Shown here piece by piece: positions 25 through 16,372 of a DNA stretch of 64,000 nt. Made by a program: the position numbers and the translations under genes. The notes under the pieces are model-generated. The model had not been told where the DNA came from and ran no database searches. It worked only from the letters and a program-made list of their open reading frames with translations. The DNA is from Clostridioides phage LIBA6276. Numbering within the stretch: the stretch's first letter is position 1; each line of letters starts with the position of its first letter. The stretch lies in sequence record MF547662.1; one strand, 5' to 3'.

Positions 25-3000
25 TTGCCAGGAAATATGGTTCAAGCATTAAATGAGCAATTTGCAAATGCTTTTACAGGAGACAATGCTCCTGAAATCA
101 CACCTAGTGTAAATGGAGAAAAAGCTAAAAAGGAATTAAAAGAGTTAGAAAAATTCAAACAAGATACTTTTAAATCAGATAAAATTGTGACTGAAATTAA
201 TAATAAAGGACTAGATTTCGCAAAAAAAGACTTGAGTGTATTAAAAGAACAGTTGGATAGATTTAAAAATGAAGATACAAAGTTGTCTTTTACTACAGAT
301 TGTGCAGATGCTTTTAAAGATGTAAATTCTTTAGAGGAAGCTAGAAAAAAAATATCTGCTCCAATGAGTTTAAAATATGATATAGATGTAGATAAAAAAG
401 GATTGACTGAAGCAAAAAAAGTCTATGATATTTTACCTGATAATCTCAAAAAAAAGATAGAAACAGAAGTAATAGGTATAGATAAATTAGACACATTACA
501 AAACTTAATAGATAAAGCTCCAAATAAAAAAGAAACTATATTTGAAATAATTAATAAAAATCCAGATAAGCTAAATGAGATAGATGAAATTCTTAATAAC
601 GTTCCAAATGATAAAAAGGAAGCTGTTATTGATTTTATAGTAAATAATTTAGACCAACTTGAAAAAGCTAAAAATGTACAAGAATTTATAAACAATTTAC
701 CTCCAGAAATAAAAAAACAACTTGGAATAGAAGTTGAAGGAGGAGAAAATGCAGAGAAAACTGTTAATACAGTTCAAAATGCAGATGGAACTAAGGCTGA
801 CCTTTTAGTAAATGCAGAAGTAAATGGAGAATCACAAGTAGTTGAATGCATAGAAACATTGGATAAGAATGGTAATAAAACATACACTCCTAATTTAAAT
901 CCTCAAGTTAATAATAGTGAAAAAGTTGTTCAGTGCATGAGAATATTAGATGAATATGGAAATGAATCTTATATTCCAATTGTAAGTCCTCAAGTTACTA
1001 ATGAAGAAGGGCTTAACAGTACTAAACAAAAAATGGATGAGTTAGATAATAAAACAGTAACTTCAACTGTACAAATAAAGACAGAAGGAGAAACTGAAGT
1101 TGAACAAGCAACCAATTTTATAGAAAATACAAATCCAACTAAGGTTATTGAGTTATCCATAAACAACTCTGGTAAAGATGAAATTGACAATACAAAACAA
1201 AAGTTAGATGAACTTAATAATGAAAAAGCCACTCCTACTATTGAAGCTACAGGTGCAGAACAAGCATCCAAACAATTAAATCAATTATCACAAAAAGCAC
1301 AAGAAATTGGGCAAGGTAATTATCATATAAATGTTAGTACTTCAACTGAACAAGGGGCTAAGAATATTTCAGGACTTATAGCTAGAGTAAAACAATTCTT
1401 AGCTTTGAAAGTATCTACACTTGTATTTAGAACTGAAACTGCACAAGCAGCAAAAAATGTATCAGGTTTGTTAGCCAAAGTACAAAGTTATGTTAGCCGA
1501 TATGGTGGAAAAACTATAAAGACTACATTTAGTGCATTAACTGCAACTGCTGCAAAGAACATATCAGGGCTTATTAGGAAAATAGAGTCATTTAAATCAA
1601 ATTATGCAGGAAAAACATTCACTACTACATTTGTAACTAATAAAGTGACTAATAGTTCTGGTGGTGGAGGAGGAGGAAATAGTTCAGATAAGACCAATAA
1701 AACTGAACGTACCTCTGTTACTAATGTAACTCCAATTCCAGCTAATCTATTAGCTCAACCTAGAACATCAGAACCAGCACCAATAAGTGACGAAACTCCT
1801 GTAACACCAAAACCATCCTTATTCTCAAGAGCAGTATCAAGAGCCACATCCGCTTTCAAAGTAATCAAACCTAAAGTTACAATAAACAATGACACAATAG
1901 ACTCATCTGTAAAATATAGTATAGAATTATTTAAAGAGTTAGAAAATGCTATATCAGCAGTAACAAATGAAATAGCTCTATTAGACAAAAAAATGGAACA
2001 TGCTACAGGTGATGAGAAGATTAAATACTTACAGGAGCAAAATAAATTATTTGCTCAACAAAAAGATTTAATAAAACAACAACAAGATGGATATAAAGCT
2101 GAAAGTAACAGACTTAAAAATAGATTAAAAGAAAAGAAAATGGGCTTTAAGTTTGATGATACTGGAAATCTAACTAACTATGAAGAAAAGTTAATATCAA
2201 TAGAAAAAGAATTAGACAAATTAAATTCAAAGTCTGGTGACAAAGAAAATAAAAAAGATGAATCCAGAAAAAAAGAGTTGGAAGAAACTAAGAAAGTCCT
2301 TGAAGAATATATTAAAGTTACATTTACAGAACTGCCTAAATGTGAGCAAGAATGGGAAGAATACAATAATAAAATTAAAGAACACAATGAGGAGTTAAGG
2401 AAAGCACAAGAAGAAATGTGGAAACTTAATAAGAATTCCACATGGACTTCTATGTACAAAGATGTAGAGCAAGTAAATAATGAAATAGCAATGATAGATG
2501 TATTACTTAAAAATGCTACAGGTGATGAGCAGATAGAGTTGTTAGAAAAGAAAAAAGAGTTAATGGCCAAGAAGGCTAAAGAACTATCTGAAACAACAGC
2601 ATATCTTCAAGAAACACAAAAAGAGCTACAACAAAAGCTACAAGGCTATGGATTTACATTTAGAGATAATGGCGATATAACTAACTTCATTCAACATAAA
2701 AATCAACTTAAAAAGAACATGACTGATGAAGAATTTAAGAGAATGGAAGAGGCAGCAGAGGGATATTTGGATTTATTGATAAATAAAATACCTGATGCCA
2801 ATAAGGAAATTGCTGAATCTAAGGAAGAAATTGAAGCATTAAATAAAGAAATTCAAGATGCTTATAAAGACCAGCTTAAAGAAGCTCAAAGCCTACAAGA
2901 AAAAATTAGAGACATGTATAAAAAAGAGCTTGAAGAGAGACTTAAAGAAATAGATAAAGAAACTAAAGCTAAAATTGATTCTCTTAAAAAGCAACAAGAT

Positions 3001-3723
3001 GCTTACAATGATTCAAGAAAAGAAGCCAAATATAAAGATGATTATGAAGAACAACAAGATGTAATAAGTGATTTAGAAAAACAAATAGCAATAGCTGAAA
3101 GAGATAGTTCTTTAAGTGGTCAGAAGAAACTTAAAGATTTACAAAAACAATTAAAAGAAGAACAGAAGAAATTACAGGATTTAGTACAAGACCATGTAGA
3201 CGACCAAGTTAACGATATGTATGACAAGGAATCTGACAGACTACAAGAAGAAGCAGATAAGTTAAAAGAAGAGTTAGAGAAAAAATACTCAGATGAAAAT
3301 TTAGTTGATTTAATTAATGAAGCAATTTCAAGCGGTAAATTTGTAGGTCTTGATGGAGAGGTTAAGAAACTTCAAGATGCTATTATTGAATACATAAATA
3401 AATATGAAGATGGTATGTTGGCAATGGGTTCTGTCACTAAGCAGGAATGGCTCGATAGATTAAAAGAAGGTAAAGAGACATTAGAAGATATTAATGACAT
3501 ATTGGATGAATTAGATTTAAGTAAATTTGCTATGCCTAATTATAATCCTCCTTCAAATTCTCGTTCAAGAAGTACATCTCCAATATCAGCAGTTAATTAT
3601 AATTCACCATTTGTTGTTGTACAAGGGAATGTAACTAAAGATGTAATGCCTGAATTTGAAAAGAAGATGAGGAAAATGATTGAAGAAAATAACAAAAAAA
3701 TTATTTCTAATACTAGGTCTTAA
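25..3723 (+). CDS. tail tape measure protein (frame stays open to nt 1, so the 5' end is probably outside the window)
   Basis: 1232-aa K/E-rich coiled-coil ORF with three ~38-aa internal repeats (AKNISGLIARVKQF / AKNVSGLLAKVQSY / AKNISGLIRKIESF) and a G6 linker; lies upstream of the Dit/Tal-like genes. Confidence 0.7.
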   Translation: MPGNMVQALNEQFANAFTGDNAPEITPSVNGEKAKKELKELEKFKQDTFKSDKIVTEINNKGLDFAKKDLSVLKEQLDRFKNEDTKLSFTTDCADAFKDVNSLEEARKKISAPMSLKYDIDVDKKGLTEAKKVYDILPDNLKKKIETEVIGIDKLDTLQNLIDKAPNKKETIFEIINKNPDKLNEIDEILNNVPNDKKEAVIDFIVNNLDQLEKAKNVQEFINNLPPEIKKQLGIEVEGGENAEKTVNTVQNADGTKADLLVNAEVNGESQVVECIETLDKNGNKTYTPNLNPQVNNSEKVVQCMRILDEYGNESYIPIVSPQVTNEEGLNSTKQKMDELDNKTVTSTVQIKTEGETEVEQATNFIENTNPTKVIELSINNSGKDEIDNTKQKLDELNNEKATPTIEATGAEQASKQLNQLSQKAQEIGQGNYHINVSTSTEQGAKNISGLIARVKQFLALKVSTLVFRTETAQAAKNVSGLLAKVQSYVSRYGGKTIKTTFSALTATAAKNISGLIRKIESFKSNYAGKTFTTTFVTNKVTNSSGGGGGGNSSDKTNKTERTSVTNVTPIPANLLAQPRTSEPAPISDETPVTPKPSLFSRAVSRATSAFKVIKPKVTINNDTIDSSVKYSIELFKELENAISAVTNEIALLDKKMEHATGDEKIKYLQEQNKLFAQQKDLIKQQQDGYKAESNRLKNRLKEKKMGFKFDDTGNLTNYEEKLISIEKELDKLNSKSGDKENKKDESRKKELEETKKVLEEYIKVTFTELPKCEQEWEEYNNKIKEHNEELRKAQEEMWKLNKNSTWTSMYKDVEQVNNEIAMIDVLLKNATGDEQIELLEKKKELMAKKAKELSETTAYLQETQKELQQKLQGYGFTFRDNGDITNFIQHKNQLKKNMTDEEFKRMEEAAEGYLDLLINKIPDANKEIAESKEEIEALNKEIQDAYKDQLKEAQSLQEKIRDMYKKELEERLKEIDKETKAKIDSLKKQQDAYNDSRKEAKYKDDYEEQQDVISDLEKQIAIAERDSSLSGQKKLKDLQKQLKEEQKKLQDLVQDHVDDQVNDMYDKESDRLQEEADKLKEELEKKYSDENLVDLINEAISSGKFVGLDGEVKKLQDAIIEYINKYEDGMLAMGSVTKQEWLDRLKEGKETLEDINDILDELDLSKFAMPNYNPPSNSRSRSTSPISAVNYNSPFVVVQGNVTKDVMPEFEKKMRKMIEENNKKIISNTRS

Positions 3724-3824
3724 TATATGTAATTGGTCTTTATTTATTATTCACTCATTTACTTACGTTTTATAATTTATAGTCAGATTTTTTTTGAAAA
3801 TATATATTTATCTAATAAAAAATA

Positions 3825-3855
3825 TTGTTTATAAAAAACGTATTTATGATATAAT
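3825..3855 (+). promoter_or_regulatory. sigma-A-type promoter (TTGTTT-19-TATAAT) for the antisense RNA of TA module 1
   Basis: hexamers read from the sequence; the 19-nt spacer is long. Confidence 0.3.
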
Positions 3856-3928
3856 AGTAATATAAATGATATAAATTTATATCATAAAGACATAAAAAAA
3901 GAGACTACAACTATTTGTGCTAGGGTGT
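3851..3928. repeat. ~80-nt conserved block, copy A (repeated at 4381-4458)
   Basis: ataatagtaatataaatgatataaatttatatcata is identical over 36 nt, then ~90% identical through gagactacaa...agggtgt. Confidence 0.85.
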
Positions 3929-4003
3929 CTCTTCATAAATAAGCGAAGTGTTAATTAGAGGAAGAATCACCTGAATTGCCGTTCGGGTGATTCTTAATTT
4001 TTT
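3860..4003 (+). ncRNA. candidate type I antitoxin antisense RNA 1
   Basis: runs from the promoter at 3825-3855 to an intrinsic terminator at 3962-4003; convergent with the minus-strand toxin ORF and overlaps its 3' end (3951-4003); ~80-nt 5' block nearly identical to 4381-4458. Confidence 0.4.
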
Positions 4004-4130
4004 GCAACGTTTTCTTAAACTCATCTATTTCTTTAAAGAGTCTATTTAAATTCTGAACCAACTTAATCAAACTAATAATTATAGTTGTAAGAAATGTTAT
4101 TATCGTTAACAAACAAATTAGATATTTCAT
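3951..4130 (-). CDS. small hydrophobic toxin-like protein, 59 aa (MKYLICLLTIITFLTTIIISLIKLVQNLNRLFKEIDEFKKTLQKIKNHPNGNSGDSSSN); candidate type I toxin
   Basis: ATG at 4130 with GGAGG upstream; single predicted TM helix plus charged tail; absent from the ORF track (below 60 aa); paralogue at 4491-4652. Confidence 0.55.
   Translation of the reverse strand: MKYLICLLTIITFLTTIIISLIKLVQNLNRLFKEIDEFKKTLQKIKNHPNGNSGDSSSN
3962..4003 (+). terminator. rho-independent terminator of antisense RNA 1
   Basis: aagaatcacc...ggtgattctt stem followed by aatttttt. Confidence 0.6.
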
Positions 4131-4188
4131 AATATCATATCACCTCCCCTCTTGATTTGACATGGGAAGGCTTATGTATATGAAGATT

Positions 4189-4267
4189 CACCCTAATAGT
4201 TTTTTTATGTAGTCTCTAAAAATATTATACCATAAATTACCAATATGTTAAATTTAATATTATATTG
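4189..4267. repeat. ~80-nt conserved block, copy A' (repeated at 4696-4774); candidate toxin-1 promoter and 5' UTR region on the minus strand
   Basis: tcaccctaatagt...gtagtctctaaaaatattataccataa..ccaatatgttaaatttaatattatattg is shared; contains tggtataat on the minus strand. Confidence 0.8.
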
Positions 4268-4355
4268 TCTACAATTGTAAAAGAATATTGTGTTCTAAGA
4301 AGTTATTCTATTAATAGTATAGCTTTTTTATTTTTCAATGAAGATAATGACAACA

Positions 4356-4385
4356 TTGACTATTTTGATAATATTGGAGTATAAT
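4356..4385 (+). promoter_or_regulatory. promoter TTGACT-18-TATAAT for antisense RNA 2
   Basis: good consensus hexamers. Confidence 0.45.
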
Positions 4386-4458
4386 AGTAATATAAATGAT
4401 ATAAATTTATATCATAGGGACATAAAAAAGAGACTACAAACTATTTGCTGTAGGGTGT
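4381..4458. repeat. conserved block, copy B (matches 3851-3928)
   Basis: direct alignment of the two copies. Confidence 0.85.
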
Positions 4459-4545
4459 AGTTCTTAAAGTTAACAATAAAAAGAATAGATTTATGTATTA
4501 CTTTCAGAATCACTAGACCCGCCAGTCTGGTGATTCTTTAGTTTT
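4392..4545 (+). ncRNA. candidate type I antitoxin antisense RNA 2
   Basis: promoter at 4356-4385 and terminator at 4506-4545; overlaps the toxin-2 3' end (4491-4545). Confidence 0.45.
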
Positions 4546-4652
4546 CTAATAGATGCTTTCAAGTTTAAGATTGCATCTATTAGCTTTGTCAAATGATTGA
4601 TTATTCTTGTAATCATAATTATCATTATTAAAAACAAAACTAAGTACTCCAT
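4491..4652 (-). CDS. small hydrophobic toxin-like protein, 53 aa (MEYLVLFLIMIIMITRIINHLTKLIDAILNLKASIRKLKNHQTGGSSDSESNT)
   Basis: ATG at 4652 with GGGGTGAG upstream; TM helix plus KLKNHxxGxSxDS tail shared with the 3951-4130 protein. Confidence 0.55.
   Translation of the reverse strand: MEYLVLFLIMIIMITRIINHLTKLIDAILNLKASIRKLKNHQTGGSSDSESNT
4506..4545 (+). terminator. rho-independent terminator of antisense RNA 2
   Basis: agaatcactagac / gtctggtgattct 13-bp stem followed by ttagtttt. Confidence 0.6.
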
Positions 4653-4695
4653 AGTCTCACCCCCTTTCTTACTGGGGATTTTAACTAAAGAGCCA

Positions 4696-4774
4696 TCACC
4701 CTAATAGTCTAAACTGTAGTCTCTAAAAATATTATACCATAATTTTCCAATATGTTAAATTTAATATTATATTG
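4696..4774. repeat. conserved block, copy B' (matches 4189-4267)
   Basis: direct alignment of the two copies. Confidence 0.8.
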
Positions 4775-4852
4775 ACGACAGGAGTAGAATAAAGATATAA
4801 TACAGATAACAGAAAATTTAAAAATTTTACATAAGAATTACTACTTATCTAT

Positions 4853-4877
4853 GCCACCTTAAAAAGTGGCTATTTTT
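4853..4877 (+). terminator. small hairpin followed by a T-run (gccac-N8-gtggc tattttt)
   Basis: seen in sequence; no obvious upstream + strand gene. Confidence 0.25.
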
Positions 4878-4910
4878 CTATTCTGGTATATATTTAAGGA
4901 GGTGTTACAA

Positions 4911-5066
4911 ATGATAAATAATATAGAAGATTGTAAGCTTCTTATTGAGGCAGAAATAAGAATGAAAGATATAGATGAAAAAGAACTAATATCTCAAAGG
5001 GAGATTCTGAAAGACCTAAATATTAATGAAAAAGACCTTGAAGATATTGAAGTGAATTTTGAATAA
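4911..5066 (+). CDS. small acidic hypothetical protein, 51 aa (MINNIEDCKLL...)
   Basis: AAGGAGGTG RBS 5 nt before the ATG at 4911; the track ORF 4866-5066 starts upstream with no RBS. Confidence 0.45.
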   Translation: MINNIEDCKLLIEAEIRMKDIDEKELISQREILKDLNINEKDLEDIEVNFE

Positions 5067-5167
5067 TGAAATGATTTATAATATACCTATTTTAAATATG
5101 TATTAGTTGATATCAGTAATCGTCTTTATCTAGTGATTTTTTATTTATTAACTGTAAACGAATCTGT

Positions 5168-5195
5168 TTTACAAAAAACGTATCTGTGGTATAAT
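5168..5195 (+). promoter_or_regulatory. promoter TTTACA-16-(TG)gTATAAT for antisense RNA 3
   Basis: extended -10 motif tgtggtataat. Confidence 0.45.
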
Positions 5196-5201
5196 AAAAG
5201 T

Positions 5202-5307
5202 AAGGAATTTAATCTACTTAATACAAAGAGTGATTGTTTCCTTAAAGTTAATTAAAAATTAATTTATCTTTTGAAACCACTCTTATTGGCGTCTGAGTGG
5301 TTTTTTG
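5202..5307 (+). ncRNA. candidate type I antitoxin antisense RNA 3 (~105 nt)
   Basis: promoter at 5168-5195, terminator at 5274-5307; overlaps the toxin-3 3' end (5264-5307). Confidence 0.45.
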
Positions 5308-5380
5308 CTTTATCATATATGTAACAAGCTATTAAACTTGTTGCAATATTTAGGCAAATATTAAACACTACTGTTTCCAT
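5264..5380 (-). CDS. small hydrophobic toxin-like protein, 38 aa (METVVFNICLNIATSLIACYIYDKAKNHSDANKSGFKR)
   Basis: GGAGGTGAATTT-ATG; paralogue of the 25552-25683 ORF (shared YIYDKxKxHSxAxKSG motif). Confidence 0.55.
   Translation of the reverse strand: METVVFNICLNIATSLIACYIYDKAKNHSDANKSGFKR
5274..5307 (+). terminator. rho-independent terminator (aaaccactc...gagtggttttttg)
   Basis: stem-loop plus a U6 run. Confidence 0.6.
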
Positions 5381-5582
5381 AAATTCACCTCCTTATAAAA
5401 AAATAAAGCGAGGCTCACCTCCTTCCTTTGAAGAAGTAGGCTAAATACAGAAACAACCACTCTTAGCACTTTCGATTTAAAATTCCTTACTATACTAGAT
5501 TATACCATAATTTTACAATTAATAAAATATTTTAGCTCATCTTAATTGATGGGCTTTTCTAATACAAAGAAGGTGATAAAAT

Positions 5583-7298
5583 ATGCATTTTAATGTGAAT
5601 CTTAAACAGATAAAATCTGATTACACATTAACCATTCACAAGATGAACAAATCATTTTTAGGTCAAATTCCAATCAACTTTTTAAACTCGATAAAGCGGG
5701 AGCTTGGTGGAGTAGATGAAATACAACTGACCATTCCAAAATATATTACAGATAGATTTTTATTTAATAAAATAATAAATCCCATTTTTGAAGAAGTAAA
5801 AGAAGAACGTCTTATTTGTCTTAATAATAAAGAGTACTTTGTAATTAAGAATGTTGTAACAACAGATGATAAGTTAAAAGTAGTAACAGCTAAATCTAAA
5901 GAAGTTAAACTAGGAAAAATTGATGTGAATATTGAGGACTATGGATTACAGATGTTTACCAAAGATGAAGAAGCATCTATTATATCTCTTAATGATTATT
6001 TAAAACAAGAGACAGGCTGGAAACTTGGTTATGTGGATGATTCAATTGCTTATGAAACTGATAGTGAAGGTAATAAGAGAGAAAAGGTAAGATGGCAAGA
6101 AAGTATTAATTCTAACTGGTTAGACTATTTTAATAATGAACTAAAAGAACAATTTGAATGTATAGCTGATTTTGATACTTATAATAATTTAGTTAATTTG
6201 TATCATATAGATAGTTTTGGAGATAACATTCAGTTATATTTATCTCATGATAACTACATAAAATCACTTGAAAGAACTACAAATAGTGATGATATAGTAA
6301 CTAGACTGAAGCTTGAAGGTAGTGAAGATATGAATGTAATAGGAGCTACAGTTACAGGATATGATTACATTGAGAACTATTCTTATTTCTTAGACAATAA
6401 AGAAATGAGTGAAGAACTTAGTAGAGCTATAAAGAAATACCAAGAAATGAATGAAATAAGAGAGCCAATTTGGAGAGAACTAATAGATACAAAGCTTAAG
6501 AAGCAAAGAGAACGTGATAGTAAAAGCAACGAATGGCAAATGGTAATAGAGATGATAAGTAAGAAAAAAGATATAAAAAAGACATATGATAATCCACAGC
6601 ATAAAGATGAAATAAATTCAGCTAAAATAGCAGTAGAGATAAGTGAACTAGAAGATAAAAAAGTCATATTGGATGTTCAAATAAAACATTTAGAAGAAGA
6701 AATAGCTAAGTTAAATGAAAGTATAAAAGATATAAATATTCTTTGTAAGAGGGAGACTTCAACTGATGAGGATGGATATCTAATATTTAATGAGGTTCTA
6801 TTAGATGAATTAAATGAGTTCCTCTACTATGACACTTATACAAATGATGCTTTTTTAAAAGTTGAAGATTTAATAGCAGAAGGTAAAAGGCAATTAAGTT
6901 TGAAATGTATTCCAACACGAGAATGGACTCTGGATGTTATAAACTTCTTAGATAGAATTATAGATATTAATTTTAGACAGCATTGGAAGGGTGATTTGAG
7001 CTTAGGAGATATTATAGTGTTACATAGCAAAGAATCTAAAGAAGAAGAATTAGTATATTTTACATCTTTTACCCAGAATTTAAAAAACGGGAAGTTAGAT
7101 ACTTTAGAATTAACTTTAAGTAATAAAAAAATAAAAGAAGATGACAAAAGAACTATAGCTGATTATTTGACTAAAGCTGAACACGCAACAAGAACATTGA
7201 ACTCTAAAAGACATTTATTTATTCAGCAACAGAAGAAAAGAATTAACCTACCAGATGAATATATTCCTAAGAAAAATATACAAAAGGAGTTGATGTAG
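5583..7298 (+). CDS. phage distal tail protein (Dit-like) or tail family protein
   Basis: 571-aa ORF with a good RBS; position follows the tape-measure gene; no diagnostic motif seen. Confidence 0.4.
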   Translation: MHFNVNLKQIKSDYTLTIHKMNKSFLGQIPINFLNSIKRELGGVDEIQLTIPKYITDRFLFNKIINPIFEEVKEERLICLNNKEYFVIKNVVTTDDKLKVVTAKSKEVKLGKIDVNIEDYGLQMFTKDEEASIISLNDYLKQETGWKLGYVDDSIAYETDSEGNKREKVRWQESINSNWLDYFNNELKEQFECIADFDTYNNLVNLYHIDSFGDNIQLYLSHDNYIKSLERTTNSDDIVTRLKLEGSEDMNVIGATVTGYDYIENYSYFLDNKEMSEELSRAIKKYQEMNEIREPIWRELIDTKLKKQRERDSKSNEWQMVIEMISKKKDIKKTYDNPQHKDEINSAKIAVEISELEDKKVILDVQIKHLEEEIAKLNESIKDINILCKRETSTDEDGYLIFNEVLLDELNEFLYYDTYTNDAFLKVEDLIAEGKRQLSLKCIPTREWTLDVINFLDRIIDINFRQHWKGDLSLGDIIVLHSKESKEEELVYFTSFTQNLKNGKLDTLELTLSNKKIKEDDKRTIADYLTKAEHATRTLNSKRHLFIQQQKKRINLPDEYIPKKNIQKELM

Positions 7299-11488: not shown

Positions 11489-14400
11489 TTGAAAGAAAAT
11501 AAATTAATACAGCGTGGAAGATATTTTGATACTATTTATGAGATTGAGGATTTTGAACCAGAATTTGATAAATATGATTTTGTTAAAATGTTTACTTCAA
11601 AATATATAGACTGTACATATGGTTTGAAATCTGATGAAACATTGTGGGTAACAGGAAATAATCAAGTGGTTGGAAAATATAGTCCAAGAAATAATAACAT
11701 TTCACGTAGAGTAGATACATTTACAAAAATTGATGGGGTATCCAATATAAAAGATATTGCAATAGGAAGTGAGCATACTGTAATTTTAAAAAAAGATGGA
11801 ACTTTATTAGGTGTTGGTCAAAATTCAAATGGAGCATTAGGGCTTGGGGGAGATATTACAGTAGCAACAACTTTTACTAAACTACCTATAGAAGATGTTG
11901 TGAAAGTTGTTGTTGGAAGTGGACTTACTATAGCATTAAAATCTAATGGAGAGTTGTATTTTACTGGTTATAATGGTAGTCAACAATTTGATAACTTAGA
12001 GAATACAAATACTTTTATTAAATTATCAATAACAGATGTAAAGGATATAGATTGTGGTGATGGTTTTACTTTTATATTAAAAACTAATGGGGAATTATAT
12101 TCATGTGGTAGTAATTCATATGGACAATTAGGACTAGGAGACAATACTAATAGAAATACTTTTACTAAAGTTAATATAGATAATGTAAAAGAAATATCTT
12201 GTGGTAGATACAATTCATTTATAATAAAAAATGATGATTCTTTATATGGATGTGGATACAATACAGAAGGTCAATTAGGATTAGGTGATATTACCAATAG
12301 AAATGTATTTACCAACATGGCTCTTAATGTAAAAAAAGTTGTATATGGAATAAATTCTACTATAATTCTAAAAAATGATGATTCTTTATATGGATGTGGA
12401 CGAAATACATATGGACAATTAGGTTTGAGAAATGTTCCTAATCCTAAAACATTCATTAAAATTGGTATAAATAATATAAAGGACATATATTGCGGAAATA
12501 ATCATACGATTATGATAAGAAATGATAATAAACTTTTATTCTGTGGAACTAATAGAGAATCACAAATAGGCAATCCAAATAATATAAATTATCCTGTAGA
12601 CGTATTTACAGAATATAAAAGTGCTGAGGTGTTGGGATATAATAAATCTGTTACCATGAACAATAAAAACTATCTTATAAAAGAAAATGGGGATTATATT
12701 TGTTATGGAAACATAAAAAAAATTGTATCTGTTGAAGGTTCGACTTATGCATTACTAGAAAATGGTGAACTATGGGTATCTGGGAATAATACAGATGGAC
12801 AATTAGGATTAAATCATAAAGTAACTCAAAATTATTTTACTAGAGTTCCAATAGATAATATAAGAGATGTTGTTTGTGGTGCTTACTATGCTTTTATAAT
12901 AAAAAACGATGATACTGTATGGGTGACTGGACTTAATAATTCTGGGCAATTAGGAACTGGCAATACTTCTCAACTACAAAAATTTACAAAAATCTCCATA
13001 GATAATGTAAAAAAAATTGCATGTGGTCGTTCTCATGTTTTAATATTAAAAAATGATAATAGTATATGGGGTGCAGGAGCAGGTTATTATTTAGGAATAG
13101 GTACTACTAGTAGTACAGGTATAACATCCTTTACAAAAGTTCCTATAGATGATGTAAGAGATATAGCATGTGGATATGAATGCTCTATAATATTAAAAAA
13201 TGATAATAGTATATGGGGTGCAGGAGCAAATCATAGTGGTCAATTAGGGAAAACCTCAAATAATAGTGTGGAAAAATATTTTATAGAATTATCTATAAAT
13301 AAAGCAGTAAAGGTGAAAGAAATATATTGTGGGATTTATCATACATTAATATTGAAAACTAATGGAGAATTATATGGATGTGGTAGTAATACACAAGGAC
13401 AATTAGGAAGAAGGATTTCTACAGACAAATTAGAACAATTTACTTTAATAGAAACTGATACCACTCATATATGTAACAATCATTGCGAATCATATAATAC
13501 ACTTATAATAGATTCTATCGGAAGGTTAAAAGCTACTGGTCAAAATAATTATAATCAATTAGGTTTAGAAAATAATAAAACTACACTAATAGAAAGTTTT
13601 ACTCCTACAAATATTGTAATCGGACAAGGTAATAATAGATATATTGCTGGTGGTAGTGATTGTACATTTTTAGTAAAAACTGATGGTAAAGTGTATGGTA
13701 TAGGAAATAGACTTAATGGAAGGTTTGGTACAGGTTCAGATAGTGTAGCAGCATCTACATTTACAAGAATTGGTTTTGAATTTAATAGTACAGAAATAGA
13801 CTATAATAATGATTTTAGGATAGCAACTACTAATGTAAATGATTATATGAGTGTCTTTTTAAAAAAAAGTAATGGAGAATTATATGGTGTGGGGAATAAC
13901 ACATATGGTCAATTAGGTATCGGAAACAATTCTACATGTCATTACTTTTATCCAATAAATATAAAAAATATAAAAGATGTGATATGTGGATTAAATTATA
14001 CCTTAATATTAAAAAAAGATGGAGAGTTATTAGTTACAGGTAATACTTCAAGTCAAAAAGCATTAGACACCAAAACCTTGTTAACTAGTGAACCGTATAG
14101 ATTTAATCAAGTGAGTACTATAAGTAATGTAGAAAAGGTTGTATGTGGTTCACTAATTGTTTTTGCGTTACTTGGTGATGGAAGATTATATAGTACAGGA
14201 ACTAATACATATGGTCAATTAGGATTAGGTGATATTGCCAATAGAGATAGTTTTGCAAGGGTCAATATAAATAATGTAAAAGAAATTGCGTGTGGGATAA
14301 GTCATACATTAATATTAACAAGTAATGGAGAATTATATGCCACAGGGAGAAATGATGAAGGTCAATTAGGACTAGGAGACAATACTAATAGAAATACTTT

Positions 14401-16372
14401 TACTAAAGTTAATATAAATAATGTAAGAAAAGTAATATGTGGTGCTTATTACACATTGGTGTTAACAAATGATGGAGAATTATATGCTACTGGAAGAAAT
14501 AAAGAGGGGCAGTTGGGACTAGGTGATATTGTTAATAGAGATACTTTTACTAAAGTTAATATAGATAATGTGAAGGAAATATCCTGTGGTCTTGACCATA
14601 CATTAGTATTGAAAAATAATGGAGAATTATATGGATGTGGGAGTAATGGACAGGGGCAATTAGGATTAGGAGATAACACTGGCAGAAATACTTTTACTAA
14701 GATTAATATAGATAATGTTAAAGGTATTAATGCAGGTGGTCGTTCATCTTATATTTATAAAAACGATGGAAGTGTTTTTTCTACTGGACAAAATACATAT
14801 GGATTATTAGGATTGGGTGATGTTACTAACAGAAATATTTTTACTAAGGTTAATATTAAAATTTTTGACTTTGAAAAAATAACAGATTGTATAGTCAATA
14901 ATAATTTTAATTTAGTAAATAATAAATTTTTAATACCTACAAAAGATACTAAATATCAACATTATGTAACTTCGTCTGATGATTTTAATTACAACGAAAT
15001 ACTAGGCTCTCAATATCCTGTTTCACCTTATGCTAATGAAGTATTAGAATTGCCTTTCAATAATATAAAAGAATTTTGGATGTCTAAAACACATTCTTTA
15101 ATTGTTAATACTGATGGAGAATTATATGGATGTGGTAAAAATACTTATGGACAATTATTAAATCCATTAACAACAACTTCTTTGCTAGAGTTTACTAAGT
15201 TAAACTTTGATAATATTAAACAAGCTTCATGTGGAAATGGATTTTCATATTTTGTTAGAAATGATGGAGCTTTATTTTCTTGTGGTTTAAATTCAAATGG
15301 TCAATTAGGACTGGGTCATAATAATGATGTTTCTGAACCTCAACTGATTACAACAATATCTAATGTAAAAAAAGTAATGTGTGATAATAATTTTACATTA
15401 GCTTTATTAAATAACAATGAATTGTATGCACAAGGATACAATAGATTTGGTAACTTTGGTTTAGGTGAAGAGAAAAAAGATACTATAATACCTTTATTCA
15501 CTAAAATTGCTACAAATGTGGAAGATGTAGAAATAGGCACTAATTATATTTTACTTAGAAAAACAGATAATACAGTTTATATTAGTGGTAGAATAAGAGA
15601 TTGTTATAATATAGAAGAAAACAATATATATGTTTTTAATGAAATTAAAACACCTTCTAGTATATACAAAGAAAATTTAGTATGGGTTAATCCTGTAAAT
15701 GATGAAACTGTATCTTTAATTTATAAAGTAAATTCAGTTAATTCAACTATTGAAATTATTGAAAAAACAATCTCTGGAATAAAGTTAAAAATAAATGATG
15801 ATGGTAATGAAATTATAAAAATAGAAATGTATATAAATAATGAGTTGATTACTACTATGACAGAATTTACAAATAAATATTCTCAATTTACCATACCATT
15901 AGATAAATTAGTTCTTGGGAGAAATAATATTGTATTTAAAGGATATGATAATTTTAAAGGAAATATATATACTTCTTTGACAATAAATAAAGAAAATAAT
16001 TCTATATATGTATCTGAAAATTCAAGTTTATTAATTAATGGAAAAAGATATACTGTTCAATCTGTTTCAGAATCTGAGGGTAAGGTCACAGTAAATTTAG
16101 ATAGAGGTTTAGAAGGAAATGTTAATGTGGGTGATATAATATATCAATTAATCAATAGGTTAAATGTTCAAATAAAAACTAATAACACTGGTATGCATAA
16201 AGATGCTAAATTGCTAGAAATGAAAAAAGTTGACACAGGTTATCAAGAAATATATGAGTTTAAAGAAAATGGAATTAAAGAAGTAGAACCTAAAATTATT
16301 GTAAATGGAAATGAAGATACAGCAATAAAAAGACCATCTATGATATTTTCTATAGATGAGACTACACTTTAG
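11489..16372 (+). CDS. tail fibre / receptor-binding candidate with ~21 RCC1 (regulator of chromosome condensation) beta-propeller repeats
   Basis: recurring Y/N-G-x-N-x-x-GQLGLGD ... F-T-K-V ... CG units; non-repeat C-terminal ~350 aa. Confidence 0.65.
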   Translation: MKENKLIQRGRYFDTIYEIEDFEPEFDKYDFVKMFTSKYIDCTYGLKSDETLWVTGNNQVVGKYSPRNNNISRRVDTFTKIDGVSNIKDIAIGSEHTVILKKDGTLLGVGQNSNGALGLGGDITVATTFTKLPIEDVVKVVVGSGLTIALKSNGELYFTGYNGSQQFDNLENTNTFIKLSITDVKDIDCGDGFTFILKTNGELYSCGSNSYGQLGLGDNTNRNTFTKVNIDNVKEISCGRYNSFIIKNDDSLYGCGYNTEGQLGLGDITNRNVFTNMALNVKKVVYGINSTIILKNDDSLYGCGRNTYGQLGLRNVPNPKTFIKIGINNIKDIYCGNNHTIMIRNDNKLLFCGTNRESQIGNPNNINYPVDVFTEYKSAEVLGYNKSVTMNNKNYLIKENGDYICYGNIKKIVSVEGSTYALLENGELWVSGNNTDGQLGLNHKVTQNYFTRVPIDNIRDVVCGAYYAFIIKNDDTVWVTGLNNSGQLGTGNTSQLQKFTKISIDNVKKIACGRSHVLILKNDNSIWGAGAGYYLGIGTTSSTGITSFTKVPIDDVRDIACGYECSIILKNDNSIWGAGANHSGQLGKTSNNSVEKYFIELSINKAVKVKEIYCGIYHTLILKTNGELYGCGSNTQGQLGRRISTDKLEQFTLIETDTTHICNNHCESYNTLIIDSIGRLKATGQNNYNQLGLENNKTTLIESFTPTNIVIGQGNNRYIAGGSDCTFLVKTDGKVYGIGNRLNGRFGTGSDSVAASTFTRIGFEFNSTEIDYNNDFRIATTNVNDYMSVFLKKSNGELYGVGNNTYGQLGIGNNSTCHYFYPINIKNIKDVICGLNYTLILKKDGELLVTGNTSSQKALDTKTLLTSEPYRFNQVSTISNVEKVVCGSLIVFALLGDGRLYSTGTNTYGQLGLGDIANRDSFARVNINNVKEIACGISHTLILTSNGELYATGRNDEGQLGLGDNTNRNTFTKVNINNVRKVICGAYYTLVLTNDGELYATGRNKEGQLGLGDIVNRDTFTKVNIDNVKEISCGLDHTLVLKNNGELYGCGSNGQGQLGLGDNTGRNTFTKINIDNVKGINAGGRSSYIYKNDGSVFSTGQNTYGLLGLGDVTNRNIFTKVNIKIFDFEKITDCIVNNNFNLVNNKFLIPTKDTKYQHYVTSSDDFNYNEILGSQYPVSPYANEVLELPFNNIKEFWMSKTHSLIVNTDGELYGCGKNTYGQLLNPLTTTSLLEFTKLNFDNIKQASCGNGFSYFVRNDGALFSCGLNSNGQLGLGHNNDVSEPQLITTISNVKKVMCDNNFTLALLNNNELYAQGYNRFGNFGLGEEKKDTIIPLFTKIATNVEDVEIGTNYILLRKTDNTVYISGRIRDCYNIEENNIYVFNEIKTPSSIYKENLVWVNPVNDETVSLIYKVNSVNSTIEIIEKTISGIKLKINDDGNEIIKIEMYINNELITTMTEFTNKYSQFTIPLDKLVLGRNNIVFKGYDNFKGNIYTSLTINKENNSIYVSENSSLLINGKRYTVQSVSESEGKVTVNLDRGLEGNVNVGDIIYQLINRLNVQIKTNNTGMHKDAKLLEMKKVDTGYQEIYEFKENGIKEVEPKIIVNGNEDTAIKRPSMIFSIDETTL

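Follow-up and report, generated by a model that had tools for sequence, protein, structure and literature searches.

In the 64,000-nucleotide (nt) stretch of Clostridioides phage LIBA6276 that we analyzed (MF547662.1; hereafter, the window), a non-structural insert of 1.9 kb separates the tape-measure gene (25..3723) from the first tail gene (5583..7298). Three small open reading frames (ORFs) lie within this insert, all on the minus strand (3951..4130, 4491..4652, and 5264..5380). The third encodes a 38-amino-acid (aa) peptide, and its 3′ end overlaps a predicted plus-strand RNA that runs toward it. The window is 100% identical to LIBA2945 (MF547663.1), a circular phiCD211-like phage-plasmid of 132.5 kb. 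With a probability of roughly 0.85, we read the third locus as a LIBA2945 short-variant type I toxin-antitoxin (TA) cassette, related to the CD0904.1-RCd13 and CD0956.3-RCd14 pairs, in which an antisense RNA would silence the 38-aa toxin and the whole cassette is built as an inverted repeat that would fold the toxin mRNA into a panhandle. All three small toxin ORFs are unannotated in the LIBA2945 record, as is ORF 5264..5380 in the records of phiCD211 and phiCDIF1296T, which, with AR1086-1, are ~97.5% identical to the window. The complete module is also present on two C. difficile plasmid records of ~130 kb each; related plasmid records list no gene under the matches, the gene table of these records being incomplete.

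The first 22 residues of the peptide have a mean Kyte-Doolittle value of 1.45, with a best 17-aa window of 1.86, and the tail, DKAKNHSDANKSGFKR, has a net charge of +3. The Shine-Dalgarno (SD) context, AAGGAGGTGAATTTATG, places GGAGG 7 nt from the ATG. An identical SD copy further upstream has no start codon behind it and is mostly paired in the predicted fold; we rejected it as the start of a leader peptide, since no ATG, GTG, or TTG lies at a usable distance. Two other ORFs, 5368..5469 (minus) and 5133..5255 (plus), were taken as spurious because, on inspection of the sequence, neither is preceded by an SD. The extended -10 toxin promoter keeps its position and sequence in all family loci; the promoter scan lists instead a weaker overlapping candidate (TTGTAA-18-TATAGT, 5518..5489, minus). 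In long-variant relatives, the mapped toxin mRNA spans the whole short antitoxin, with an overlap of 131-134 nt (PMC5961336), so the window toxin mRNA probably extends to the antitoxin start.

On the plus strand, the antitoxin -10 element and the AAAAG[T/C]AAGGAA that follows it are conserved with RCd13/RCd14-type loci. A 116-nt RNA covering 5200-5315 folds with an energy of -27.9 kcal/mol (z = -4.2), and none of 200 shuffles folded as well. Its terminator, located within the last 14 codons of the toxin, consists of a 10-bp stem (5273-5282/5295-5304) with a 12-nt loop, followed by a U-run; our scan missed this hairpin because it allowed loops of at most 8 nt. The two arms co-vary between clades, reading CACTC/GAGTG in some and CACCC/GGGTG in others. 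A search of positions 3600-5700 against Rfam in E-value mode gave no match, indicating that there is no curated family for these antitoxins.

By sequence homology, the cassette is a divergent, unannotated member of the known and validated C. difficile short-variant type I TA family. In tblastn searches, homologs of the window peptide with 40-51% identity occur in many C. difficile phages. For family assignment, we located the cloning primers reported by Peltier et al. (2020) in the fetched loci. The CD0904.1/RCd13 primers matched CDMH1-type loci, with all three exact in loci L068, L070, and L080, and all three CD0956.3/RCd14 primers were exact in 16 loci (L041 and 15 others). The peptides of the primer-matched loci are MLINFLLSIVAGIVSAYIYEKIKNHPNANKGDLKK for the CD0904.1 type (35 aa) and MIGFLLSILAGVISAYIYDKIKNHPDANKGDLKK for the CD0956.3 type (34 aa), to which the window peptide is 40% and 47% identical, respectively. 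All three share the core IYDK.KNH..ANK, within which I-Y...K-N-H..A.K is invariant. The window peptide matched phrog_738 (E = 9e-13; E = 9e-7 for the CD0956.3 type) and NCBIfam NF047374, "CD_typeI_toxin" (type I toxin-antitoxin system toxin; E = 5.2e-7, 30.0 bits); Pfam returned nothing for the 38-aa peptide. According to Peltier et al. (2020; PMC7699646), both CD0904.1 and CD0956.3 are toxic, causing growth arrest, and are neutralized by their antisense RNAs; the modules also stabilize the prophage phiCD630-1 as well as plasmids.

The features by which short variants are recognized were all found in the window: a size of ~34-47 aa with a hydrophobic N terminus and positive tail, toxin homology, a ribosome-binding site (AGGAGG, 7-8 nt from the start codon), and, for the predicted transcripts, a convergent antisense RNA with its own sigma-A promoter, an overlap with the toxin 3′ end, and a terminator. 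Family loci also share the order of their elements. An extended -10 toxin promoter is followed by the transcript start AG[C/U]AAGGA, the box AAGRGUGRYU...UUUYC, the SD, and a hairpin over the K-N-H...K-S/G-G/D codons, and further downstream in every locus a convergent extended -10 promoter precedes the same AG[C/U]AAGGA. The SD, start codon, and open frame are kept in 70 of the 83 loci, and the hydrophobic N terminus and basic tail are retained despite many amino-acid changes. This exact toxin type is intact in only five loci: the window, L012, L013, L006, and L007.

The two other ORFs of the insert belong to modules 1 and 2 (3790-4270 and 4330-4790), which have the same convergent promoter and terminator arrangement. 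Their peptides (59 and 53 aa) are paralogs of each other with 39% identity, fall into phrog_5620 (unknown function), and have no NF047374 match, so that the third module is the one of the three in the characterized C. difficile family. The K-N-H codons that form the 5′ arm of the hairpin are the only element common to all three modules. Modules 1 and 2 may represent a less characterized toxin family.

A preliminary description of this DNA had proposed a third type I TA-like module from a distinct toxin subfamily, with a 38-aa minus-strand ORF at 5264-5380, two consecutive SD-like sequences, a plus-strand promoter (5168-5195), and a terminator placed within the 3′ part of the toxin coding sequence. 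That description was correct for the ORF and its peptide, the SD copies proved to be identical, the promoter scan and RNA folding recovered the promoter and the terminator hairpin, homology to validated pairs supports a type I module, and the difference in family matches among the three modules bears out a distinct subfamily. Positions of the cassette features are collected in Table 1.

Table 1. Predicted features of the third cassette (window coordinates; UTR, untranslated region; CDS, coding sequence; TSS, transcription start site)
Feature	Position	Strand	Details and basis
Antitoxin promoter, TTTACA-16-TG-g-TATAAT	5168..5195	plus	Promoter scan; 11/12 matches, TG present
Predicted antitoxin RNA, ~110 nt	5202..5311	plus	5′ stem-loop, A/U hairpin, terminator; ends placed from promoter and U-tract
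Antitoxin 5′ box AAGAGTGATTGTTTCC (M3)	5226..5241	plus	Minus-strand complement is the toxin 3′-UTR arm of the predicted panhandle; inverted repeats and covariation test
Hairpin inside toxin 3′ coding region; with U-run to ~5311, antitoxin terminator	5273..5304		Codons K-N-H-S-D-A-N-K-S-G-F
Toxin ORF	5264..5380	minus	38 aa, METVVFNICLNIATSLIACYIYDKAKNHSDANKSGFKR; hydrophobic N-terminal 22 aa and basic tail (+3)
Functional SD AAGGAGGTGA	5385-5394 (plus-strand TCACCTCCTT)	minus	7 nt ahead of ATG
Clade-specific 30-nt insertion carrying the functional SD AAGGAGGTGA	5385..5414	minus	Absent from all other clades in transcript alignment
Upstream ancestral SD copy, identical, within GGAAGGAGGTGA	5415-5424	minus	30 nt further upstream; 37 nt from ATG
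Toxin 5′-UTR box (RNA UAAGAGUGGUUGUUUC)	5450..5465	minus	5′ half repeats CDS-hairpin 3′ arm; 3′ half repeats antitoxin 5′ box
Toxin promoter, extended -10 TGgTATAAT, poor -35	5499..5507	minus	Read from sequence; predicted TSS ~5491
Predicted full-length toxin mRNA, ~293 nt	5199..5491	minus	3′ end placed from mapped long-variant relatives (PMC5961336)
163-nt segment deleted in relatives	5354..5516		Toxin codons 1-9, both SDs, leader, promoter; alignment with relatives

Compared with CD0956.3-RCd14 and CD0904.1-RCd13 of phiCD630-1, the window cassette has the same hydrophobic N terminus and basic tail in a homologous toxin (40-47% identity), GGAGG 7-8 nt before the ATG, a convergent antisense RNA with an extended -10 promoter and AG[C/U]AAGGA start, a terminator hairpin over the K-N-H...K-G/S codons, a 5′-UTR box, and the inverted-repeat layout described below; like them, it is carried on phages and phage-plasmids. 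It differs in that its toxin is 38 rather than 34-35 aa, with the N-terminal extension METVV and a more polar transmembrane segment. The 30-nt insertion that created the second SD and this new start lengthens the leader to ~112 nt, compared with ~84 nt. Hairpin and box are in the AAGAGUGG rather than the AAGGGUGA state, and the cassette occupies the tape-measure/tail site of a ~130-kb phiCD211-like genome, beside two toxins of another family.

The long variants CD0956.2-RCd10, CD2907.1-RCd9, and CD2517.1-RCd8 (Maikova et al., 2018; PMC5961336) belong to the same superfamily (NF047374, E = 5e-7), and short variants were first found by tBLASTn with CD0956.2. Shared features are convergent, 3′-overlapping transcripts, a ~300-nt toxin mRNA covering the whole ~130-nt antitoxin, and a long 5′ UTR, whereas long-variant toxins are 50-53 aa and their modules are associated with clustered regularly interspaced short palindromic repeat (CRISPR) arrays. 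Our literature search found no paper tying phiCD211 or LIBA2945 to type I TA systems, although it did not cover the phage toxin list in Figure 6 of PMC7699646. Toxins of this family already serve as counter-selection markers, so there may be a use for a pair that is divergent and perhaps orthogonal.

In the predicted toxin mRNA, the ~42 nt at either end (5199-5240 and 5450-5491) make up an inverted repeat with 74% complementarity. With the cassette arranged in this way, the 5′ leader of the toxin mRNA would pair with its own 3′ UTR in a panhandle. For the window, the panhandle pairs have in silico probabilities of 0.65-1.0, values that depend on the inferred mRNA 3′ end, and the expected number of long-range pairs is 35.9, compared with 4.2 when the 5′ end is shuffled. 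Each short-variant module contains three copies of the motif AAGRGUGRYU: M1 in the toxin 5′ UTR, M2 in the 3′ arm of the CDS hairpin, and M3 near the antitoxin 5′ end. The complement of M3 lies in the toxin 3′ UTR. The 5′ half of M1 tracks M2, reading AAGAGUGG in the clades of the window, phiCD146, and L008 and AAGGGUGA in those of CD0956.3 and CD0904.1; its 3′ half tracks M3, with the variants UUGUUUC, UUAUUUUC, UUUUCUC, and GCUAUUUCC.

To examine covariation, we used anchor-registered gapless mini-alignments, as a whole-transcript MAFFT alignment mis-registered the 3′-UTR box between clades. Because the 3′ segment is chosen for its similarity to the 5′ box, the mini-alignments are biased toward pairing, and our shuffle, slid, and cognate/non-cognate controls correct this bias only in part. 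Among 12 distinct sequences, 88.7% of the alignment cells of the panhandle helix were paired, and eight of its 17 pairs change on both sides. None of 500 shuffles reached the covariation score, and slid controls were ~50% paired. Cognate duplexes had a mean energy of -21.5 kcal/mol, versus -15.8 kcal/mol for non-cognate ones, and in five of seven clades the cognate pair ranked at or near the top. Covariation extends to the terminal helix, which reads AGUAAGG...CCUUACU in the window clade and AGCAAGG...CCUUGCU elsewhere. By inspection, where M1 and M3 differ, there is mostly a G in M1 and an A in M3, which gives a G-U pair in the toxin-sense RNA and an A-C mismatch on the other strand. These differences point to selection on the toxin mRNA. 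Modules 1 and 2 follow the same design, with a toxin 5′ end, AGAGACUACA, that is perfectly complementary to UGUAGUCUCU, downstream of the stop codon and just before the U-run. The inverted-repeat cassette layout is not described in the published literature we searched, and the conserved inverted-repeat/panhandle design is a new, modest, and testable addition.

In hok/Sok of plasmid R1 and AapA1/IsoA1 of H. pylori, toxin mRNAs are locked by long-distance pairing between their 5′ and 3′ ends. The window toxin mRNA is similar in its stable pairing, in silico, between 5′ leader and 3′ end, and in the stabilities expected of the two RNAs, high for the toxin mRNA and low for the antisense RNA. However, there is no homology. 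The antitoxins also differ in their targets: those of hok and AapA1 hit the 5′ translation-initiation region after 3′ processing, whereas the window antitoxin is antisense to the 3′ coding sequence and 3′ UTR, including the 3′ arm of the panhandle, and not to the 5′ leader or initiation region. Folding of the AapA1, TisB, ZorO, and DinQ mRNAs is cited in PMC6563280.

In the cassette as we envisage it, the minus strand would produce a ~290-nt toxin mRNA encoding the 38-aa peptide, with its transmembrane N terminus and basic tail, which by homology would arrest growth when made. The plus strand would produce a ~110-nt antisense RNA fully complementary to the 3′ coding end and 3′ UTR of the toxin mRNA. 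Judging from relatives, the overlap duplex would block toxin production through RNase-mediated decay and possibly through refolding of the mRNA. The 5′ part of the antitoxin has almost the same sequence as the toxin leader, and in our folds the 5′-UTR motif would serve as one arm of the panhandle. As in relatives, we presume a short lifetime for the antitoxin and a long one for the toxin mRNA; such lifetimes have been measured only for CD0977.1/RCd11 (89 min for the toxin mRNA versus 8 min for the antitoxin). With such lifetimes, cells losing the element would be poisoned, and this would stabilize the extrachromosomal prophage. C. difficile commonly harbors phiCD211-like elements as large extrachromosomal prophages, and an addiction module would help explain their persistence.

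To mimic the bound state, we barred the antitoxin-complementary region from pairing and refolded the toxin mRNA. In most family members the start codon was now sequestered: the probability that the AUG is unpaired dropped to 0.03 in the window (0.48 before) and in L041 (0.72 before), and to 0.00 in L004 (0.40 before). Its partner in the bound-state fold is a CAU/UGU triplet directly 3′ of the box. Shuffling the released 5′ segment abolished sequestration, with 0 of 40 shuffles as low in five representatives. As sequestration is weak in L006, L007, and L013, which are three of the window module's four closest relatives, and does not occur in the L008 clade, and as a CD0956.3 construct without the CAU/UGU element is still neutralized, this refolding would be at best an extra layer.

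These folds suggest, tentatively and with the odds clearly against it, that C. difficile phage type I cassettes, of both the short-variant and phrog_5620 types, are inverted repeats that form a three-partner RNA switch. In such a switch, the panhandle between the leader and its own 3′ UTR would keep the toxin mRNA stable and the start codon open. The 5′ part of the antitoxin, a near-copy of the leader, would invade the 3′ arm and free the leader, whose box-adjacent CAU/UGU would then pair with the start codon and stop translation, in addition to duplex-triggered decay. The combination of panhandle and leader mimic provides a testable idea for how a 3′-overlapping antitoxin could control a distant start codon in C. 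difficile systems. In bsrG/SR4 of the Bacillus subtilis SPbeta prophage, the antitoxin reportedly overlaps the 3′ end of the toxin mRNA, and decay together with a long-range refolding that occludes the translation start is said to have been proposed. That system is likewise a type I TA of a Gram-positive prophage with its antitoxin at the toxin mRNA 3′ end, and blocking the antitoxin-complementary region in silico likewise sequesters the AUG in most members of the window cassette's family. It differs in having no sequence homology to the window cassette, where refolding is a prediction that varies among relatives as described above.

Several observations weigh against a working cassette of the design we favor. 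The 30-bit score of the window peptide falls short of the curated NF047374 cutoff of 60, which the CD0956.3, CD0904.1, and phiCD146 types also miss (53.6, 53.4, and 48.1 bits); as NF047374 models ~51-aa toxins, the window peptide is a relative rather than an equivalog. Its N terminus is less hydrophobic than those of its relatives (mean Kyte-Doolittle 1.45 versus ~2.0), the -35 element of the toxin promoter is poor, and our promoter/terminator scan found no canonical minus-strand terminator, so the toxin mRNA 3′ end is an inferred one. All that we say about function is carried over from relatives of 40-51% identity. Apparent covariation could also arise if the two arms are paralogous or undergo gene conversion, and the panhandle is not strictly conserved: in L041, the locus of the strain-630-type CD0956.3, the helix has an energy of -16.2 compared with -26.5 kcal/mol, yet this cassette is functional. 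L041 is a natural recombinant that combines its own leader with a phiCD146-type antitoxin 5′ segment. Finally, toxin start and promoter have been lost in most close relatives, indicating that the toxin is dispensable, and the module may be decaying in this lineage.

This loss results from a clean 163-nt deletion in phiCD211, phiCDIF1296T, AR1086-1, ~10 IMG/VR prophages, and four plasmids. The deleted loci retain the antitoxin promoter, RNA, and hairpin, and the junction has no obvious microhomology. Since all other clades have a complete cassette, the deletion is the derived state. In one alternative, the window cassette, though intact in sequence, is a decaying or silent remnant without working addiction, the toxin being unexpressed or nontoxic. 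Only the antisense RNA and its terminator would then count; the RNA might, for instance, protect against addiction by related elements that enter the cell, or the hairpin might end transcription in the tail operon. Consistent with a remnant, about two-thirds of the phiCD211-like loci retrieved carry the deletion while keeping the antitoxin, four of the deleted loci also have a 1-nt change that frameshifts the leftover ORF, the leader of the window clade is rearranged by the 30-nt insertion, and the toxin N terminus is of reduced hydrophobicity. However, LIBA2945 and four other loci keep the promoter, SD, start, ORF, and the conserved residues I21, Y22, K26, N27, H28, A31, and K33, and the intact copies differ by a few amino-acid changes, with none disrupted. 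Moreover, the deleted loci are ~97.5% identical to the window, so retention of the antitoxin may be mere recency and says little about selection; it may be selected or simply recent. We therefore consider a remnant unlikely. Under the reading as a working TA cassette, the polymorphism between intact and deleted elements offers natural strains for testing the role in persistence.

A second alternative keeps the same molecules and assigns them another main role: rather than in post-segregational killing, they would act in conflicts between phages or between phage and host, by abortive infection or superinfection exclusion, or in lysis timing. The structural operon does contain all three cassettes in one cluster, oriented against late transcription; type I TA systems of C. 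difficile co-localize with CRISPR arrays and are stress-regulated (PMC5961336); and abortive infection is among the experimentally validated roles of TA systems in general (PMC6563280). Although the sequence does not discriminate between these roles, the only experimental roles of close relatives are plasmid stabilization and prophage maintenance (PMC7699646), and the hosts of the cassette are ~130-kb extrachromosomal phage-plasmids, for which addiction is the obvious benefit. A role in conflict or lysis timing thus appears quite unlikely, and addiction is the role we prefer.

The last alternative arises from a repeated motif. The preliminary description had noted that part of the terminator stem recurs in the toxin leader, at 5451-5461, and had suggested that the antisense RNA could pair with the toxin mRNA 5′ UTR as well as its 3′ end. 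The repeat exists: AACCACTCTTA has exactly two occurrences in the 64-kb window, at 5275-5285 and 5455-5465, which puts the second copy 3-4 nt from where it had been placed. An 11-mer repeat within 480 AT-rich bases is unremarkable alone, and the same stretch contains another exact 11-mer repeat; this one is significant because it is conserved in homologous loci. The suggested pairing is weak; complementarity of 9-11 bp is found in nearly all clades. According to the resulting two-site model, the antisense RNA would contact the 3′ end of the toxin mRNA and, via the 5′ arm of its terminator, AACCACUCUUA, the 5′-UTR motif, the latter contact blocking translation, and would thus resemble the multi-site RNA I/RNA II contact of pAD1 par (Fst).

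Across clades, the box and the hairpin arm match each other (AAGAGUGG with AAGAGUGG, AAGGGUGA with AAGGGUGA). In the pair test, a 9-bp core is nearly always paired, with two pairs changing on both sides, and co-folding of the antitoxin with the 5′ UTR gives a change in free energy (ΔΔG) of -6.5 kcal/mol with this contact included. But the antitoxin 11-mer is the 5′ arm of its own terminator, which costs 10.6 kcal/mol to open and leaves a net energy of about -0.3 kcal/mol. Covariation is weak, as 26 of 500 shuffles reach the score and the motif has only two states across clades, and L089 breaks the pairing. RNAduplex, applied to the whole antitoxin and the 5′ UTR, returned a many-helix duplex (-43.6 versus -32.6 kcal/mol for shuffles) that we judged uninformative, because the method ignores intramolecular structure. 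The same similarity would also let the box pair within the toxin mRNA, with the 5′ arm of its CDS hairpin, making an intramolecular reading equally possible. Further, the Ptet constructs of CD0904.1 (-43 to +109) and CD0956.3 (-35 to +108) begin past the box yet are fully neutralized (PMC7699646). Their starts correspond to transcript positions 41 and 50, respectively, and the box to positions 26-43. As these constructs are still neutralized, the 5′-UTR site is unnecessary for neutralization in relatives. A two-site antitoxin is therefore very unlikely, and the 5′-UTR box is better explained as a panhandle arm within the toxin mRNA than as a required second antitoxin site.

The par system of Enterococcus faecalis pAD1 (Fst/RNA II) has convergent RNAs, an overlap terminator hairpin, and repeated motifs. 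The window cassette is similar in its convergent toxin and antitoxin RNAs, in the terminator hairpin within their overlap, and in repeats that allow more than one contact. In addition, positions 5235-5246 of the window antitoxin box are complementary at 11 of 12 positions to the toxin start region UUUAUGGAAACA (5372-5383); by eye, this complementarity has no obvious counterpart in CD0956.3-type loci. Unlike par, the window module has no Fst-type toxin (there is neither Fst homology nor a Pfam match) and no complementary 5′ repeats over the translation start, its repeats making the two 5′ ends alike rather than complementary, and in its relatives the 5′-UTR site is dispensable.

A CD0956.3-type toxin with identical leader and CDS occurs with two antitoxin 5′ segments: the L009 type, which matches its own leader box, and the phiCD146-like L041 type, which is the combination matching all strain-630 primers. 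This comparison involves ~35 related loci, and the presence of two antitoxin 5′ segments with one toxin indicates that cassettes recombine internally, in the interval from the toxin stop to the antitoxin start. In L006, L007, and L013, homology to the window ends at the antitoxin -10 box, with the -35 and everything beyond differing, and L006 apparently lacks the segment with the small ORF that separates modules 2 and 3, as its toxin ORFs are more closely spaced. With a boundary near the -10, the cassette behaves like a mobile unit. Family members or antitoxin halves were also found in a Veillonella-labelled metagenome-assembled genome (MAG), a Romboutsia MAG, and small Terrisporobacter plasmids (L091 and L093; two plasmid matches); either the family is wider than C. 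difficile or some bins are contaminated.

The surroundings of the cassette contain further features. Five plus-strand terminator-like hairpins lie between the tape-measure and tail genes (3962-3995, 4506-4537, 4853-4870, 5273-5304, and 5534-5555), on the sense strand of the structural operon, and no strong plus-strand promoter precedes 5583; late transcription would thus need read-through, producing RNA antisense to each of the three toxin mRNAs. The hairpin at 4853-4870 lies ~50 nt beyond a plus-strand promoter of near-consensus sequence (TTGACG-18-TATAAT, 4772-4801). After it come a strong SD and a short acidic ORF (4911-5066; 51 aa, MINNIEDCKLL..., or 66 aa if counted from an upstream GTG), which is annotated as a hypothetical protein in LIBA2945 and phiCD211. 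The 4772-5066 region could act as a leader/attenuator or give rise to a short RNA. A 1627-aa ORF (11489-16372) that follows the tail genes contains many tandem repeats with the motif G-Q-L-G-L-G-D, which look RCC1-like; it is presumably a tail fibre or receptor-binding protein.

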